A stretch of DNA of 64,000 nt from Pseudomonas phage sp. 30-2. Position 1 is the stretch's first letter, and every line of letters begins with the position of its first letter. The translations under genes and the position numbers were made by a program. Below the pieces are notes generated by a model, which was not told the origin of the DNA, searched no databases, and saw nothing but the letters and a program-made list of their open reading frames with translations. The stretch is from the sequence record LC727697.1; one strand, written 5' to 3'. Shown piece after piece: positions 56,850 through 64,000 of this stretch.

Positions 56850-57029
56850 ATATGTTTTACCATTATTATTGAATATAATTATAAGAAATAAAAAACACTA
56901 TATGTATAATAACACATAGTGTTTTAGATACAACTGGAATTACTTCTTAGGTACTTTTTAGTATTCAAAGTTCATTGTAGTAAGCCATTTCATCCAAGTT
57001 AGTAATGTTATTGGAATGGATGGTCTGAT

Positions 57030-57071
57030 CTGTGCAAATAAGAATAATTTGTATTTGCATTTGCATTTGAC
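57030..57071. repeat. Dispersed palindromic repeat family, copy A (ctgTGCAAATAAGAATaatttgtatttgcatttgcatttgac)
   Basis: Shares 30 nt with copy H2 (63274-63304). GCATTT x3. Confidence 0.65.
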
Positions 57072-57075
57072 TTAA

Positions 57076-57107
57076 TAAAAAGAAAGGGGCATTGCCCCTT
57101 TCTTTTG
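57076..57107 (-). terminator. Conserved-stem terminator AAAGAAAGGGGCattGCCCCTTTCTTT (family AAAGGGGC-N3-GCCCCTTT)
   Basis: Perfect 12-bp stem immediately after the stop of the 57115..57348 gene. Confidence 0.7.
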
Positions 57108-57114
57108 TCACTAA

Positions 57115-57348
57115 CTAAACTGTTTCACCGAAATCAATAATTACACCTAATTCTAAATTATTTTTTCGGATATGTTTTGATAGGAGTGTTTGTGCATCGA
57201 GACGCCCAAACGCATGTAATGTAATAGTTCTTTTTTTGAACAAACTTTCTGTTGCTTTATTCCGTGCAGTGTACTGAATGACAAATTTAGTTGGAATTGC
57301 CTTTGTTTTTGGCATTGGGCGTGGATTTGTATTCAGTTTGCGGTACAT
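57115..57348 (-). CDS. Cassette gene, 77 aa basic protein
   Basis: Perfect sigma70 promoter (TTGACA 57399-57404, N17, TATGCT 57376-57381), SD AAGGAG, and terminator. Confidence 0.55.
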   Translation of the reverse strand: MYRKLNTNPRPMPKTKAIPTKFVIQYTARNKATESLFKKRTITLHAFGRLDAQTLLSKHIRKNNLELGVIIDFGETV

Positions 57349-57375
57349 GTATATCTACTCCTTGCTGTTTTATAC

Positions 57376-57404
57376 AGCATAATATGATCTTATGTACATG
57401 TCAA
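57376..57404 (-). promoter_or_regulatory. Sigma70-like early promoter TTGACA-N17-TATGCT (minus strand)
   Basis: Reverse complement reads TTGACAtgtacataagatcatatTATGCT, followed by SD AAGGAG. Confidence 0.5.
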
Positions 57405-57420
57405 TCATTTTTATTATATT

Positions 57421-57909
57421 TCAACTAATAAAATATGGTTTAGGTGTCTTTGTATATGTAGCATAAATGGGTCTGTTAGATCTCGATGCCCATTCTTTAA
57501 ATTTGTCATTTAAATATAACTGATATGAATGTGTTACATTACCTGTTTTAAATTCGTCTGGCATAACTAAGACAAACTCTGTTCTTTCTATATTAGGGAG
57601 TTTTGGTATAGTTTTTAATGACGAAAGGTGAATTTTAGTTGCATGTTGTTTGTCAAATCTATATTCAAATTCATTTATAAGACTTGTAAGAAGTTCATAA
57701 GTCCATTCATAGTTTTTTGAACTTTCTCTAATCCAAACGGCACATGGATGATTTTTATGAGTAGGTTTATATGCAGGAGTATATCCGTTTATTATATAAT
57801 GAGTAGTGCTTAACAATTGTGCTGTTTCTACTATCATCTTTCTTAGATGAACATCACAATGATGTTTGGCACATACATAAGGATTTGTGTCAGTCACAAA
57901 TATATTCAA
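57421..57909 (-). CDS. Hypothetical protein, 162 aa (N-terminal 'TDTNPYVCAKHHCDVHLRKMIVETAQLL')
   Basis: ORF between repeat elements. Confidence 0.45.
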   Translation of the reverse strand: MNIFVTDTNPYVCAKHHCDVHLRKMIVETAQLLSTTHYIINGYTPAYKPTHKNHPCAVWIRESSKNYEWTYELLTSLINEFEYRFDKQHATKIHLSSLKTIPKLPNIERTEFVLVMPDEFKTGNVTHSYQLYLNDKFKEWASRSNRPIYATYTKTPKPYFIS

Positions 57910-57960
57910 TTTATATTACCTACAATGTTTAATGTGTAAAATACAGTATTCAGTATGATT

Positions 57961-58017
57961 TGTAAATAAGAGTTATTATTATGTCAGAATAGATGCAAAT
58001 AAGAATATTTGTTATTA
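57961..58017. repeat. Repeat-family copies (tgtaaataagagttattatta ; cagaatagaTGCAAATAAGAATatttgttatt)
   Basis: 'cagaatagatgc[a/t]aataa' is also found at 60410-60430. Confidence 0.5.
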
Positions 58018-58026
58018 ACAGTCATA

Positions 58027-58052
58027 GAGAAAGCACCTTTCGGTGCTTTCTC
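58027..58052 (-). terminator. Terminator hairpin GAGAAAGCACCtttcGGTGCTTTCTC after the GC-rich 145-aa gene
   Basis: Perfect 11-bp stem. Confidence 0.55.
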
Positions 58053-58065
58053 GGTGTAGTCCGGA

Positions 58066-58503
58066 TTATGCTTCCGGCTGGGCTTCTTTGCGCTTCTTCG
58101 AGCTGCCTTTCTTCGCCGGGGCAGCGTCGCCGGACTGGACTGCGTGGTCGGCGACCTGGACTACTGCCTTGACCAGGTTGTGGGCTTGCTCTTCCTTGCT
58201 CAGCGTGCTGGCCGGCATCTCGGCGCCTTCTTTGCCGTCGGTCAGGATGAACAGGATTGCTTGTTCCATCGCCCGGGCGATCCGGATCGCGCTGAACACG
58301 CCTTTCTGTTCGAGGACGATGTCCTTGCCGTTGATGTTGGCGTCGATCTTCGCCGACCAGGTGCGCTGGGTTTTGGTCTTGTAGAACGCTTCGCTGCTGC
58401 CTACTTCGACGCCGTTCAGCAGCAGGGCTTGCCGGTGCCCTTCCAGGTTGCGGCGGACCAGTTTGATTGCGGATTGCTCGACGGTAACGGTTGCTTTGGT
58501 CAT
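58066..58503 (-). CDS. GC-rich island B gene, 145 aa with a basic C-terminal tail (KKGSSKKRKEAQPEA); possible nucleic-acid-binding protein
   Basis: About 60% GC against ~33% background. SD AGGAG; terminator downstream. Confidence 0.55.
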   Translation of the reverse strand: MTKATVTVEQSAIKLVRRNLEGHRQALLLNGVEVGSSEAFYKTKTQRTWSAKIDANINGKDIVLEQKGVFSAIRIARAMEQAILFILTDGKEGAEMPASTLSKEEQAHNLVKAVVQVADHAVQSGDAAPAKKGSSKKRKEAQPEA

Positions 58504-58671
58504 GATTTGGAACTCCTAGCTGTATTTGGGTTTGTCTATGAAGCGCTGTTTGCTTGCTTCATGTGTGTAGTATATGCAGATCTGGCCACCATGTACAATT
58601 GAACGTTTTAATGGACTTTGTAGATTCTAATAGATTTTATCTAACGAAGATTAGGTACAGTAGCCTGCTGG

Positions 58672-62511: not shown

Positions 62512-62571
62512 TAAGATTAGTTCTTATTTGCGTGGCGGGGATATTATCATTGCAAATAAGAACTAATCTTA
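62512..62571. repeat. Perfect 20-bp inverted repeat TAAGATTAGTTCTTATTTGC-N20-GCAAATAAGAACTAATCTTA (copy F)
   Basis: Arms are exact reverse complements. Spacer gtggcggggatattatcatt. Confidence 0.75.
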
Positions 62572-62640
62572 ACAAATGCATATTAAAAAGGGCTTACAAA
62601 TTGCAAGCTCTTTGTGTTACGCTGCAGGGTTATTTTTTCA

Positions 62641-62758
62641 GAATTATTCTTATTCAGTTTCTTTGTTGTTAATAAGAACTTATTATCAGGCCTAATCAAG
62701 AATGCGTCTTATTTGCATTGTGCTTTTACCACAACCGTAATAGTTCTTATTTGCACAG
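62641..62758. repeat. Repeat-family cluster G (gaATTCTTATTcag / ttAATAAGAACttat / cctaatcaagaatgcgtcttatttgcattgtgc / agTTCTTATTTGCAcag)
   Basis: G3 is ~88% identical to H1 (63231-63262) over 32 nt. A ~50-bp block is duplicated between the two regions. Confidence 0.6.
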
Positions 62759-62769
62759 AAATTGCAGAC

Positions 62770-62800
62770 AAAAGAAAAGGGCTTGCGCCCCTTCCTTTTT
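62770..62800 (-). terminator. Family terminator (imperfect) AAAAGGGCttgcGCCCCTTcctttttt
   Basis: GC stem plus T run immediately after the stop of 62805..63125. Confidence 0.5.
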
Positions 62801-62804
62801 TGTG

Positions 62805-63125
62805 CTAGCTGTTAGCTTCCAGAAAGTCCATTACACCCTTTGCAGTGCCGTTGTCAAAGAAAAGGTGCGTGTCCATGCGTTCCACAACAAATCCGTAGTA
62901 GTCCCAGCCTACTATCCATCCTGCATACTTGTCAACCAATTTGTAGCAGGGATAGTCTGAATCCTCGTAGTGCGGCAGTTCCTGGGACAGCTGGACTAAC
63001 ACATAGTCTATGCCGTTGTCAACAAAACTTTGTAGGAGTTCCTCGTAGTGATTTTTAATGGAAACTGTAGAAACGTTGTCCTCTGGGACTAGTGCGTCCC
63101 AGTTAAAACCTTTAAAGTCAACCAT
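62805..63125 (-). CDS. Cassette gene, 106 aa acidic hypothetical, intermediate GC
   Basis: ORF with terminator. Confidence 0.45.
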   Translation of the reverse strand: MVDFKGFNWDALVPEDNVSTVSIKNHYEELLQSFVDNGIDYVLVQLSQELPHYEDSDYPCYKLVDKYAGWIVGWDYYGFVVERMDTHLFFDNGTAKGVMDFLEANS

Positions 63126-63230
63126 TTTCTTATCCTGCTATTAATGTTTATAGGTACTGCAATACACATACTAGCACCTGTGTAGCATAACGCAAGCTTT
63201 TTCTTTTTGTGAACAATTCTTATCACCCAG

Positions 63231-63304
63231 CCGTATCAAGAATGCCTCTTGTTTGCATTCGCATCTCACTGCCCTGTGCAAATAAGAATAATTTGCATTT
63301 ACAC
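63231..63304. repeat. Repeat-family cluster H (ccgtatcaagaatgcctcttgtttgcattcgc ; ctgTGCAAATAAGAATaatttgcatttacac)
   Basis: H2 is nearly identical to copy A; H1 to G3. Confidence 0.65.
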
Positions 63305-63312
63305 TTAGGACA

Positions 63313-63347
63313 TAAAAGGAAAGGGGCAGTTGCCCCCTTTCCTTTAG
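63313..63347 (-). terminator. Family terminator GGAAAGGGGCagttGCCCCCTTTCC
   Basis: GC stem after the stop of 63344..63646. Confidence 0.65.
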
Positions 63348-63646
63348 TAATTGCGCTGGTACCCGGCAACTACACTGACGTCTCTGCCTTTAATGTAGAT
63401 CTTGCGTGCGCCGCCGAACCAGTGTCCACAACAGTCTCTCGAGCAGCTACAGCTTTGCTCCATGAGCTGGTACACTGCCTTACGGAGTGCCCAACTGCTA
63501 GCACGAACACCACGGGGCAGACGCAGTCGAACAACGTCGATAGTCTCGATATCGATCGGACTGTTCGGATTGCGGACAGTGTGTTTACTGACAACCTTGC
63601 GGGCAGTCACAACACGCCCGTTGATCCACAGATGAACGAGATTCAT
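63344..63646 (-). CDS. GC-rich island C gene, 100 aa basic protein
   Basis: ~58% GC; coupled to the upstream 82-aa gene. Confidence 0.5.
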   Translation of the reverse strand: MNLVHLWINGRVVTARKVVSKHTVRNPNSPIDIETIDVVRLRLPRGVRASSWALRKAVYQLMEQSCSCSRDCCGHWFGGARKIYIKGRDVSVVAGYQRNY

Positions 63647-63657
63647 GGTGTCTCTCC

Positions 63658-63906
63658 TTAGTTGCTATCTTCGGCAATGACGTACAAAGTAACGCCGCAG
63701 CCCGGAGGAACTAGGCGCCACTGCACGTCGTACGCTCTCAGTGCGTCGTAATGGCTAGCAAACACGGGAGCGTTGGGACCAACAACCTTAACCTTGCCCA
63801 TCATTGCACAGCGCTTGATTGCGTGCAACAAGGCGCTGTCGAGGTCTACAGATGTAAACACTTCGGCGATGTTGCCGATGCTGTTAACATGCAATACTTT
63901 AGCCAT
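63658..63906 (-). CDS. GC-rich island C gene, 82 aa hypothetical
   Basis: SD AGGAGCAACAGACAATG; GC-rich. Confidence 0.5.
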   Translation of the reverse strand: MAKVLHVNSIGNIAEVFTSVDLDSALLHAIKRCAMMGKVKVVGPNAPVFASHYDALRAYDVQWRLVPPGCGVTLYVIAEDSN

Positions 63907-63985
63907 TGTCTGTTGCTCCTGCTAGTTATGTGTTACTGCTAAACACATACTAACATCTTACCGCAGTAATGCAACAGGAGATTGA

Positions 63986-64000
63986 CTTGTGCAAATGCAA
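63986..64000. repeat. Repeat-family copy I (cttgTGCAAATGCAA), truncated by the window end
   Basis: Matches the GCAAATGCAAAT core. Confidence 0.4.

Follow-up and report, generated by a model that had tools for sequence, protein, structure and literature searches.

We analysed a stretch of 64,000 nucleotides from Pseudomonas phage sp. 30-2 (record LC727697.1), called the window below, in which the part from 56900 to 64000 consists of small early genes separated by a repeated composite module, made up of an intrinsic terminator, a palindromic array of 6-bp units and a sigma-70 promoter. These terminator-palindrome-promoter modules punctuate the early transcription units and mark where gene cassettes come and go among related phages. 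Judging from the form of the array and from the genes that the same palindrome precedes in bacteria, we lean towards the reading that the early cassettes are split by modules in which the array is a Fur-family operator, most likely bound by the Fe2+-Fur of the host.

In megablast, the part 56900-64000 aligns with ten members of the genus Wroclawvirus (Pseudomonas jumbo phages), including PA5oct, Ettore, MIJ3 and Paride, at 96-98% identity over 90-100% of the query, and by this alignment the source is a PA5oct-like jumbo phage of the genus Wroclawvirus, Arenbergviridae. The same part corresponds to PA5oct 35588-28421, reversed, and lies inside the annotated 39,080-bp direct terminal repeat, which makes up 13.6% of the PA5oct genome and the inner end of which is placed at about position 53376 of the window by the alignment to PA5oct. 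The early genes of the window lie on the minus strand. PA5oct is dependent on the RNA polymerase of its host, and gp34-gp105 of its terminal repeat are early genes with high transcription (PMC7318152); the span of these genes coincides with the span of the palindromes in PA5oct (8.7-35.5 kb). The published study of PA5oct predicted 32 sigma-70-type promoters and 36 factor-independent terminators, and the palindromic repeat is not described in it (PMC7318152).

The repeat is a 27-bp palindrome (13-1-13 bp), TGCAAATAAGAAT-N-ATTCTTATTTGCA, made of 6-bp units in the order GCAAAT AAGAAT n ATTCTT ATTTGC, with further in-phase GCAAAT/ATTTGC units being frequent and the whole array extending over 27-40 bp. 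Its core TTCTTATTTGCA is highly conserved and its dyad symmetry is strong, and a dyad of 6-bp units conserved this strongly suggests a protein that binds DNA as a dimer. When scored with the 27-mer TGCAAATAAGAATNATTCTTATTTGCA at a cut-off of at least 19/26, 10 full palindromes are found in 57033-63303 (starting at 57033, 57961, 57994, 58670, 60354, 61096, 61957, 61983, 62691 and 63277), all intergenic, and none elsewhere in the window, while dinucleotide shuffles of the whole region or of the intergenic DNA alone give 0.01 expected sites with a maximum of 1. The half-site TGCAAATAAGAAT with at most 2 mismatches occurs 19 times in the window versus 5.9 expected, with 15 of the 19 occurrences within 57033-63289. 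In the PA5oct genome, all the palindromes are intergenic and 23 of the 25 lie in the terminal repeat. The dispersed palindromic family that an earlier, sequence-only reading of this DNA had described is thus real, and, because the palindromes are found between genes only and nearly all the PA5oct copies lie in the terminal repeat, the family is no chance product of AT-richness of the kind that would arise inside coding regions as well.

The family is confined to this group of phages. All ten Wroclawvirus records hold 17-23 copies per genome, other phage records hold at most 1-2 weak matches, and 926 kb of unrelated phage contigs gave just 2 weak matches. The scan of IMG/VR viral contigs gave three unrelated single sites, and no such repeat family was found at 80 loci that encode homologues of the 162-amino-acid protein of the window gene 57421-57909. 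Among the relatives the palindromes diverge by 3.3% versus 4.25% for other intergenic DNA, which is a weak signal. It is also noted that outside the window, at PA5oct 8669-8788, three phased full palindromes stand 46-47 bp apart with no genes between them, just downstream of the annotated ncRNA001 (8263-8498) and followed by about 380 gene-free nt, and that another PA5oct palindrome lies 31 nt past ncRNA002.

The palindromes are accompanied by terminators. Terminator-like hairpins number 18 versus 7.2 expected, and the terminator family with one conserved stem that the sequence-only reading had proposed stands in a looser form, that is, as bidirectional hairpins of the type A-rich/GGGG(C)-loop-(G)CCCC/T-rich at five places: 57076..57108 (a bidirectional intrinsic terminator, AAAGAAAGGGGCATTGCCCCTTTCTTTT), 60760..60792 (a 15-pair stem, common to the convergent genes 60525-60764 on the plus strand and 60808-60990 on the minus strand), 62023..62056 (AAAGGAAAGGGGAATTAATCCCCTTTCCTTT), 62768..62799 (AAAAGGGCTTGCGCCCCTTCCTTTT) and 63313..63345 (AAAGGAAAGGGGCAGTTGCCCCCTTTCCTTT). 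The exact form AAAGGGGC-N3-GCCCCTTT occurs just twice, at 57083 and 60767. To say that nearly every cassette ends in the same stem was an overstatement, for some of the genes have one terminator in common, and the hairpin at 58023-58050 bears no relation to the family. The inverted cassette (60525-60764, plus strand), of which the repeat and the terminator had been taken to be inverted together with the gene as a sign of mobility, is uninformative in this respect, because no orientation can be read from a symmetric palindrome and a bidirectional terminator.

In gene orientation, the module order is an A3G4-loop-C4T3 terminator, 5-20 nt, the palindromic array, the sigma-70 promoter, the ribosome-binding site and the gene, the cassettes carrying their own promoters and terminators. 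The gap from the array to the sigma-70 promoter ranges from 13 to more than 100 nt. In eleven cases in PA5oct, the palindrome centre lies 33-71 nt past the preceding stop codon, and in that genome it lies 27-868 nt from the next -35; in the window most centres lie 35-69 nt past a stop codon, with the exceptions of 61957 (87 nt) and 60354 (no upstream gene). From the narrow range of the former distance versus the variability of the latter it follows that the palindrome tracks the terminator and not the promoter. The most compact form is a 113-bp unit of terminator, array and promoter, where the array ends 13 nt ahead of the -35. A terminator placed directly upstream of a promoter in this compact way is seen in the 113-bp module, both in PAC2 and where the window ends, and at PA5oct 22432 and 34471, and in the other modules the distance between promoter and terminator is 66-140 nt or more. 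The copy at 57961 alone overlaps a promoter, lying over the predicted -35. The palindrome as a promoter in itself was rejected, as in the copies checked by eye no usable -10 is present 16-18 bp from TTTGCA, again with the exception of 57961.

The modules coincide with places of gain and loss. When the window and eight relatives were aligned over about 15 kb and the junctions were read, four of the seven cassette-scale indels had junctions in or within 11 bp of palindrome modules, so the expected variation of cassette content between relatives at the repeats is borne out. The clearest case is a minus-strand cassette at 62564..63288 (the gene 62805-63125 with its own promoter and terminator), which is missing from Callisto by an exact deletion between two direct copies of TGCAAATAAGAA, leaving the junction ATTATCAT[TGCAAATAAGAA]TAATTTGCATTTACA; its left junction is the half-site 62551-62563 and its right junction is the full copy 63277-63303. 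An extra cassette of about 445 bp with a 288-nt gene is present at 61969|62026-44 in MIJ3, PAC2, Cassandra and Paride, its flanks being direct repeats of palindrome plus terminator start, with the junction 61969 inside the first copy at 61957. In MIJ3, Cassandra and Deifobo there is an extra GC-rich gene of 297 nt with the right junction 11 bp from the 57033 copy and the promoter starting 14 bp past the palindrome. Just past the window end, a 765-bp cassette is present in PAC2, Cassandra, Ettore and Callisto and absent from MIJ3, PA5oct and Paride; in PAC2 it is flanked by two copies of the 113-bp module with 97% identity, and Deifobo has a 472-bp insert where others have the 765-bp cassette.

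It weighs against the modules as the boundaries of exchange that three of the seven indels (54070/56168, 54572/54893 and 55872/56168) lie where no palindromes occur. Two of their ends, 54572 and 55872, have a 46-nt promoter repeat no more than about 60 bp away. This direct repeat (80% identity, 54467-54512 and 55878-55923) holds the minus-strand promoter TTGACG-17-CATAAT, and the indel junctions of Paride, Cassandra and Callisto are close to its copies, so that repeated promoters, too, seem to provide homology for recombination. The direct repeats at the indel junctions vary in length (12, about 40 and 113 bp), which indicates general homologous recombination or slippage rather than a site-specific enzyme. 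The modules, being repeated about 20 times in the terminal repeat, serve as the homology for the deletion, insertion and exchange of cassettes among relatives.

This mode of working resembles that of the promoter-early stem-loop (PeSL) elements known from T4-like phages (Arbiol et al. 2010, PMC2839356; Comeau et al. 2014, PMC4122927), as the sequence-only reading had suggested while noting that the sequences are distinct. In both systems small genes of unknown function in a plastic region alternate with copies of an element that joins a stem-loop terminator to a sigma-70 early promoter, and indels between close relatives have their junctions at the elements with cargo of unknown function (four of the seven events here). 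The stem A3-4G3-loop-C3T3-4 of nt-1/KVP40 also resembles the stems in the window (PMC4122927). By contrast, the elements described here belong to a jumbo phage of Arenbergviridae/Wroclawvirus and lie in a long terminal repeat, an additional 27-40-bp palindromic hexamer array stands between stem-loop and promoter, the promoter is frequently far from the stem-loop, and there is no homology between the sequences. Because the phage lineages and the sequences are unrelated, the modules are an analogue of PeSL and not a member by descent.

We now consider what the array may bind. The pattern TGCAAATNNGAATNATTNNNATTTGCA was scanned against one genome per species (185,579 species, 596 Gb), giving 32 bacterial loci, mostly in GC-rich Proteobacteria, where a 27-mer this rich in AT is conspicuous. 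Gene starts are found within about 40-150 bp of the sites, and 12 of the 20 flanking genes tested are metal-uptake genes, encoding TonB-dependent receptors (5), a siderophore-type periplasmic binding protein (1), HemP (1), FbpA-like binding proteins (2) and ZnuA-family proteins (3), all of which are types of genes targeted by Fur-family regulators. The exact phage half-site TGCAAATAAGAAT lies upstream of two TonB-dependent receptors (loci L021 and L024). Because the same extended palindrome precedes iron- and metal-uptake genes in bacteria, it looks like a Fur operator.

The structure of a Fur-DNA complex gives a further point of comparison. The crystallised Fur-feoAB1 operator TTAATTGCAAATCATTTGCAATTGC has the half-site TGCAAAT, in which Arg57 contacts the G and Tyr56 contacts the T bases (PMC4506495), and the outer unit TGCAAAT of the phage palindrome is identical to this half-site. 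In some copies the unit reads TGCGAAT, as at 60354. The classical Fur box has been described as an array of GATAAT-like hexamers, and the phage arrays show the same architecture, with at least three 6-bp units in the order forward-forward-x-reverse and with 6-bp phasing, each unit matching GATAAT at 4/6 positions. Papers on P. aeruginosa accept more than 10/19 matches to the classical Fur box GATAATGATAATCATTATC (PMC9426570); the sites in the window reach 12-14/19 and those of PA5oct 10-13, scores that are non-discriminating in an AT-rich phage genome, and the bacterial palindrome sites reach 11-15/19 with a mean of 13.2, a range into which the window sites fall. A tblastn search of the phage with the Fur sequence of P. 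aeruginosa gave no homologue, which makes the Fur of the host the likeliest binder. Altogether, we think it probable that host Fur binds the palindromes. The operator for a phage regulator that had been envisaged in the sequence-only reading would then be right in kind, with host Fur a likelier binder than a phage protein. Among other candidates, MotA boxes, sigma-54 or Bacteroidetes-type promoters and sites of IHF, Fis, Lrp, ArgR and TyrR were compared with the palindrome, and none of them fits.

Several points weigh against binding by Fur. The pattern used in the bacterial scan fixed 21 of the 27 positions, so that identity there is by construction and the gene context is the informative part of the scan. 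The two outer TGCAAAT units are 13 bp apart and not 1 bp as in the 7-1-7 arrangement (PMC4506495), and the inner 7-1-7 unit, TAAGAAT-n-ATTCTTA, has A at position 2 rather than the G contacted by Arg57. Matches to GATAATGATAATCATTATC at thresholds of 11-14/19 are not enriched in the terminal repeat. The pvdS Fur box of P. aeruginosa, AATTGACAATCATTATCATT, which is experimentally established, overlaps its promoter and belongs to the GATAAT type; its similarity to the phage palindrome is moderate (5/7 per half-site). An overlap with the -35/-10 would be expected in classical repression, whereas most of the phage palindromes are clear of promoters. Where Fur activates or counters silencing, its sites are placed upstream of the promoter. 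The reported enzyme resistance of PA5oct DNA suggests a modified G in the GA or GG context (PMC12191111), which could alter the recognition of the inner AAGAAT, the G of which is in the GA context; the G of the outer TGCA is in the GC context and would be left untouched by such a modification. The main text of the PA5oct transcriptome paper makes no mention of a change in the iron regulon during infection, which argues against a strong titration of Fur in rich medium.

Three rival explanations have to be weighed at this point. In one of them the palindrome is the operator of a dimeric protein encoded by the phage, such as a repressor that shuts off early genes or an activator, and the likeness to Fur boxes is convergent or incidental. 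The strong dyad symmetry with the highly conserved core, the limitation of the family to one phage genus, the moderate match to the classical Fur consensus and the best-conserved bases lying partly outside the classical 19-bp box would all be explained in this way, and such a regulator could come from among the small uncharacterised proteins, dozens of them, that are encoded in the terminal repeat. Pfam, however, recognises no DNA-binding domain among the proteins of the stretch, the same extended sequence stands at iron-uptake promoters of unrelated bacteria, and arrays with 6-bp spacing and in-phase GCAAAT extras have the architecture described for Fur. Moreover, a shut-off operator should track promoters, yet the sites track terminators. 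We hold a phage-encoded binder to be unlikely. A smaller chance is given to the explanation that the repeats bind no protein and are simply the conserved parts of duplicated terminator-promoter modules, relevant solely as recombination homology. The blocks of 38-113 bp common to some copies, the indel junctions within palindromes and the small excess of conservation over other intergenic DNA are consistent with it, but most copies share the 27-40-bp palindrome alone, with the flanks, the terminator loops and the promoters being different, and the dyad symmetry has been kept independently across many copies. In addition, the three phased full palindromes at PA5oct 8669-8788 have no intervening genes, and palindromy is unexplained by duplication alone. 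We therefore regard this explanation as improbable.

The remaining rival, in which the palindromes would work at the RNA level or as hairpins extruded from the DNA, serving as back-up terminators, as processing sites or as substrates of a site-specific recombinase like the attC sites of integrons, appears very improbable. It would account for the position of the palindromes at the 3' ends of cassettes, which is that of attC sites, and for the Callisto junction being exactly inside the motif, and read-through of the terminators would transcribe the palindromes. The stems, however, are rich in AU, their loop is no longer than 1 nt and a U-tail is missing, Rfam gave one sub-threshold match, to STnc540, and none above threshold, and the annotation of PA5oct contains no integrase or recombinase. 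Each cassette has its own promoter, unlike the cassettes of integrons, and the varying lengths of the junction repeats fit general homologous recombination.

Returning to the reading of the array as an operator for host Fur, the following pathway can be proposed. Fe2+-Fur would occupy the sole untranscribed DNA of a compact region, namely the gap between early transcription units. The first array unit, 5-20 nt past the terminator, would lie at about the front edge of RNA polymerase when the active site is on the U-tract, and thus a protein bound past the terminator could strengthen termination and insulate the units from each other. In the compact modules the bound protein would be placed about -50 to -85 relative to the next promoter and might modulate it. 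Either effect, insulation or promoter modulation, would make early expression dependent on iron, and this would be the likeliest consequence of binding. As a secondary effect, about 45 sites per genome could sequester host Fur during replication, and a further possibility is that Fur would counter the host silencers MvaT and MvaU. Fur counters H-NS at ftnA of E. coli. It is noted that insulation, promoter modulation, titration and anti-silencing are indistinguishable from sequence alone. The full picture, in which a virulent jumbo phage carries about 20 host-Fur operators per terminal-repeat copy and about 45 per genome, with the early takeover reading the iron status of the cell and the array soaking up Fur, is tentative and, taken as a whole, doubtful.

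Compared with known Fur boxes (GATAATGATAATCATTATC; the hexamer-array and 7-1-7 models), the palindromes are alike in being AT-rich inverted-repeat arrays of 6-bp units, and they differ in belonging to a virulent phage, with each terminal repeat holding about 20 of them, in their position after terminators and not over the -35/-10, and in their inner units, AAGAAT/ATTCTT rather than GATAAT/GAGAAT. Host Fur operators in phage DNA are known from temperate phages. The stx1 gene, which is iron-regulated, lies on a temperate phage. Lambdoid coliphages carry a fur box upstream of sitABCD (PMC6969025). The candidate operators here are comparable in kind, but the operators of temperate phages are single ones that cover one accessory operon's promoter in a prophage, whereas here the array is dispersed over the early region of a virulent phage. 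With the attC arrays of integrons there is the difference that the cassettes here have their own promoters and terminators and that no integrase is annotated in PA5oct.

The pre-early region of T5 is a further system to compare. It likewise has a long direct terminal repeat with small early genes read by the host RNA polymerase, and clusters of sites for a host DNA-binding protein lie in the untranslated parts of the repeat, the sites here being predicted Fur sites. SPO1, in its terminal redundancy, has another host-takeover module in a long terminal repeat. For T5, a preprint put forward the idea that the DNA is held during two-step injection by clustered host DnaA boxes in the terminal repeat (10.1101/866236). 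The proposed protein in T5 is thus DnaA and its sites are concentrated in one region (the injection-stop), whereas the sites here are Fur-box-like and dispersed between about 20 transcription units, and two-step injection is not known for PA5oct. In Klebsiella T5-like phages, we observed a tandem array of three palindromes that resemble Fur boxes, at intervals of 35 bp; in vB_KpnS_Riker_ER52 (PP738788, about 9.35-9.46 kb; L052 1133-1235), for example, they read AAATGCGAATCATTCTCATTCGCATTC, AAACGAGAATAATTATCATTCGCATTC and AAATGCGAATCATTATCATTCGTATTTGCATTT. Two of the three reach 14-15/19 against the classical Fur consensus, and similar matches are present in about 35 Klebsiella T5-like phages, which are a second, unrelated group with long terminal repeats carrying a Fur-box-like array. 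This array suggests that the recruitment of Fur to terminal-repeat DNA may be a strategy of phages more widely, and, when T5's DnaA boxes are taken together with it, sites for host proteins in phage terminal repeats may be a wider theme.

The individual copies in the window are as follows. The hexamer array at 57033..57070 (24/26) reads TGCAAATAAGAAT-A-ATTTGTATTTGCA and then ATTTGC ATTTGA, with the in-phase extra units ATTTGT ATTTGC ATTTGC ATTTGA at 57047-57070, and its centre is 69 nt past the stop codon of the gene 57115-57348. The copy at 57961..57987 (19/26) is degenerate and lies over the predicted -35 (TTTACA) of the promoter of the gene 57421-57909, TTTACA-17-TATTTT at 57966-57938. The palindrome at 57994..58020 (22/26), which includes an exact half-site, comes directly after the hairpin 58023-58050. 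At 58670..58711 the palindrome (21/26) is extended by the in-phase hexamers ATTCGC ATTTGC ATTTGC (58684-58701), and this copy is 100% complementary to the copy at 60352-60376 across 25 nt. The full palindrome at 60354..60380 (24/26), TGCAAATGCGAAT-A-ATTCTTATTTGCA, lies between divergent promoters, at 60226-60198 on the minus strand and, on the plus strand, TTGCAT-16-TATACT at 60459-60486; the copy listed by the sequence-only reading at 60410 is no more than a weak relative. The palindrome at 61096..61122 (21/26) has a degenerate right half and adjoins a perfect 13-bp tandem repeat, TCCAATTATCAAA, in 3.9 copies at 61121-61171, between the stop codon of the gene 61168-61455 and the palindrome. 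This tandem repeat occupies the place that a terminator hairpin has in the other modules.

Further along, two adjoining copies, 61957-61983 and 61983-62009, make up 61957..62009 (23/26 and 19/26). Two tail-to-tail half-sites at 62512..62571 form the perfect 20-bp inverted repeat with a 20-nt spacer that had been reported there and is indeed present. Degenerate copies at 62691..62755 (62691-62717 and half-sites at 62705 and 62743) lie in a gene-free stretch of 442 nt (62363-62804), which has no convincing gene and contains, in addition to the degenerate palindromes and the inverted repeat, a small terminator-like hairpin (62592-62608); this stretch may be the scar of a past cassette loss or an unannotated RNA. 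At 63231..63303 a degenerate copy is followed by the full copy 63277-63303 (22/26). Both blocks said to be common to pairs of copies are found, one at 57025-57062 and 63269-63306 with 87% identity, and the other at 62679-62719 and 63219-63259 with 80% identity, the latter measuring 41 nt rather than the approximately 50 given for it. Finally, the minus-strand region 63947..64000 is the start of a compact 113-bp module of terminator, array and promoter, with the promoter TTGCAT-16-TAGTAT at 63974-63947 and the array from 63986; the module, and with it the listed copy at 63986, is cut by the window end.

The cargo of the modules, according to the open reading frame list, consists of about 16 small early genes of unknown function at 57115..63906, several of them GC-rich, all on the minus strand with the exception of 60525-60764. 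With Pfam, none of the 19 proteins of the region gave a match above threshold, two matches were sub-threshold (Pyr_excise for 57421-57909 and Lcl_C for 54907-55398), and no recognisable DNA-binding domain was present among them. The sub-threshold match of the 162-amino-acid product of 57421-57909 (minus strand) is to pyrimidine dimer DNA glycosylase (PF03013, E=3.7e-4); in relatives this protein is annotated as 'DNA binding protein' or 'endonuclease V', and its homologues at 37-54% identity are common across viral contigs. Homologues of the 145-amino-acid product of the GC-rich gene 58066-58503 are confined to PA5oct-like phages. At least one terminal-repeat gene of PA5oct, gp52, encodes a known counter-defence factor that inhibits END nucleases (PMC12191111).

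We also observed that genes of 54-60% GC at 54000-56000, 58066-58503 and 63344-63906 have a phage-type promoter and terminator each in a phage of about 33% GC, and that the extra gene of MIJ3, Cassandra and Deifobo, at 56988|57022, is likewise GC-rich. At 53142-53347, adjoining the inner boundary of the terminal repeat placed at about 53376, there are dense tandem repeats, namely TACAG in 5 copies, a 17/44-bp unit GAAAGTGACTTATAAGT and GAACCTATAGAC in 3 copies. The copy number of these repeats differs between relatives, and they may be linked to how the ends of the terminal repeat are defined.

In the library that was searched, no paper links PA5oct to Fur, and we found no description of a virulent phage with dispersed operators for a metal sensor of the host. 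What appears to be new here is PeSL-like shuffling in a new phage family together with an array of Fur-box-like operators. PeSL-type shuffling is thus not confined to T4-like phages, and it shapes the early-gene terminal repeat of a Pseudomonas jumbo phage that is a candidate for therapy. If the palindromes bind Fur, a virulent phage would carry a dispersed array of operators of a host metal sensor and infection would be tied to the availability of iron. In the full picture held doubtful above, the replicating array would also switch on the iron uptake of the host, supplying the iron-dependent enzymes of the phage (class Ia ribonucleotide reductase and QueE). The link to iron would matter at iron-limited infection sites, where PA5oct-like phages would be used.

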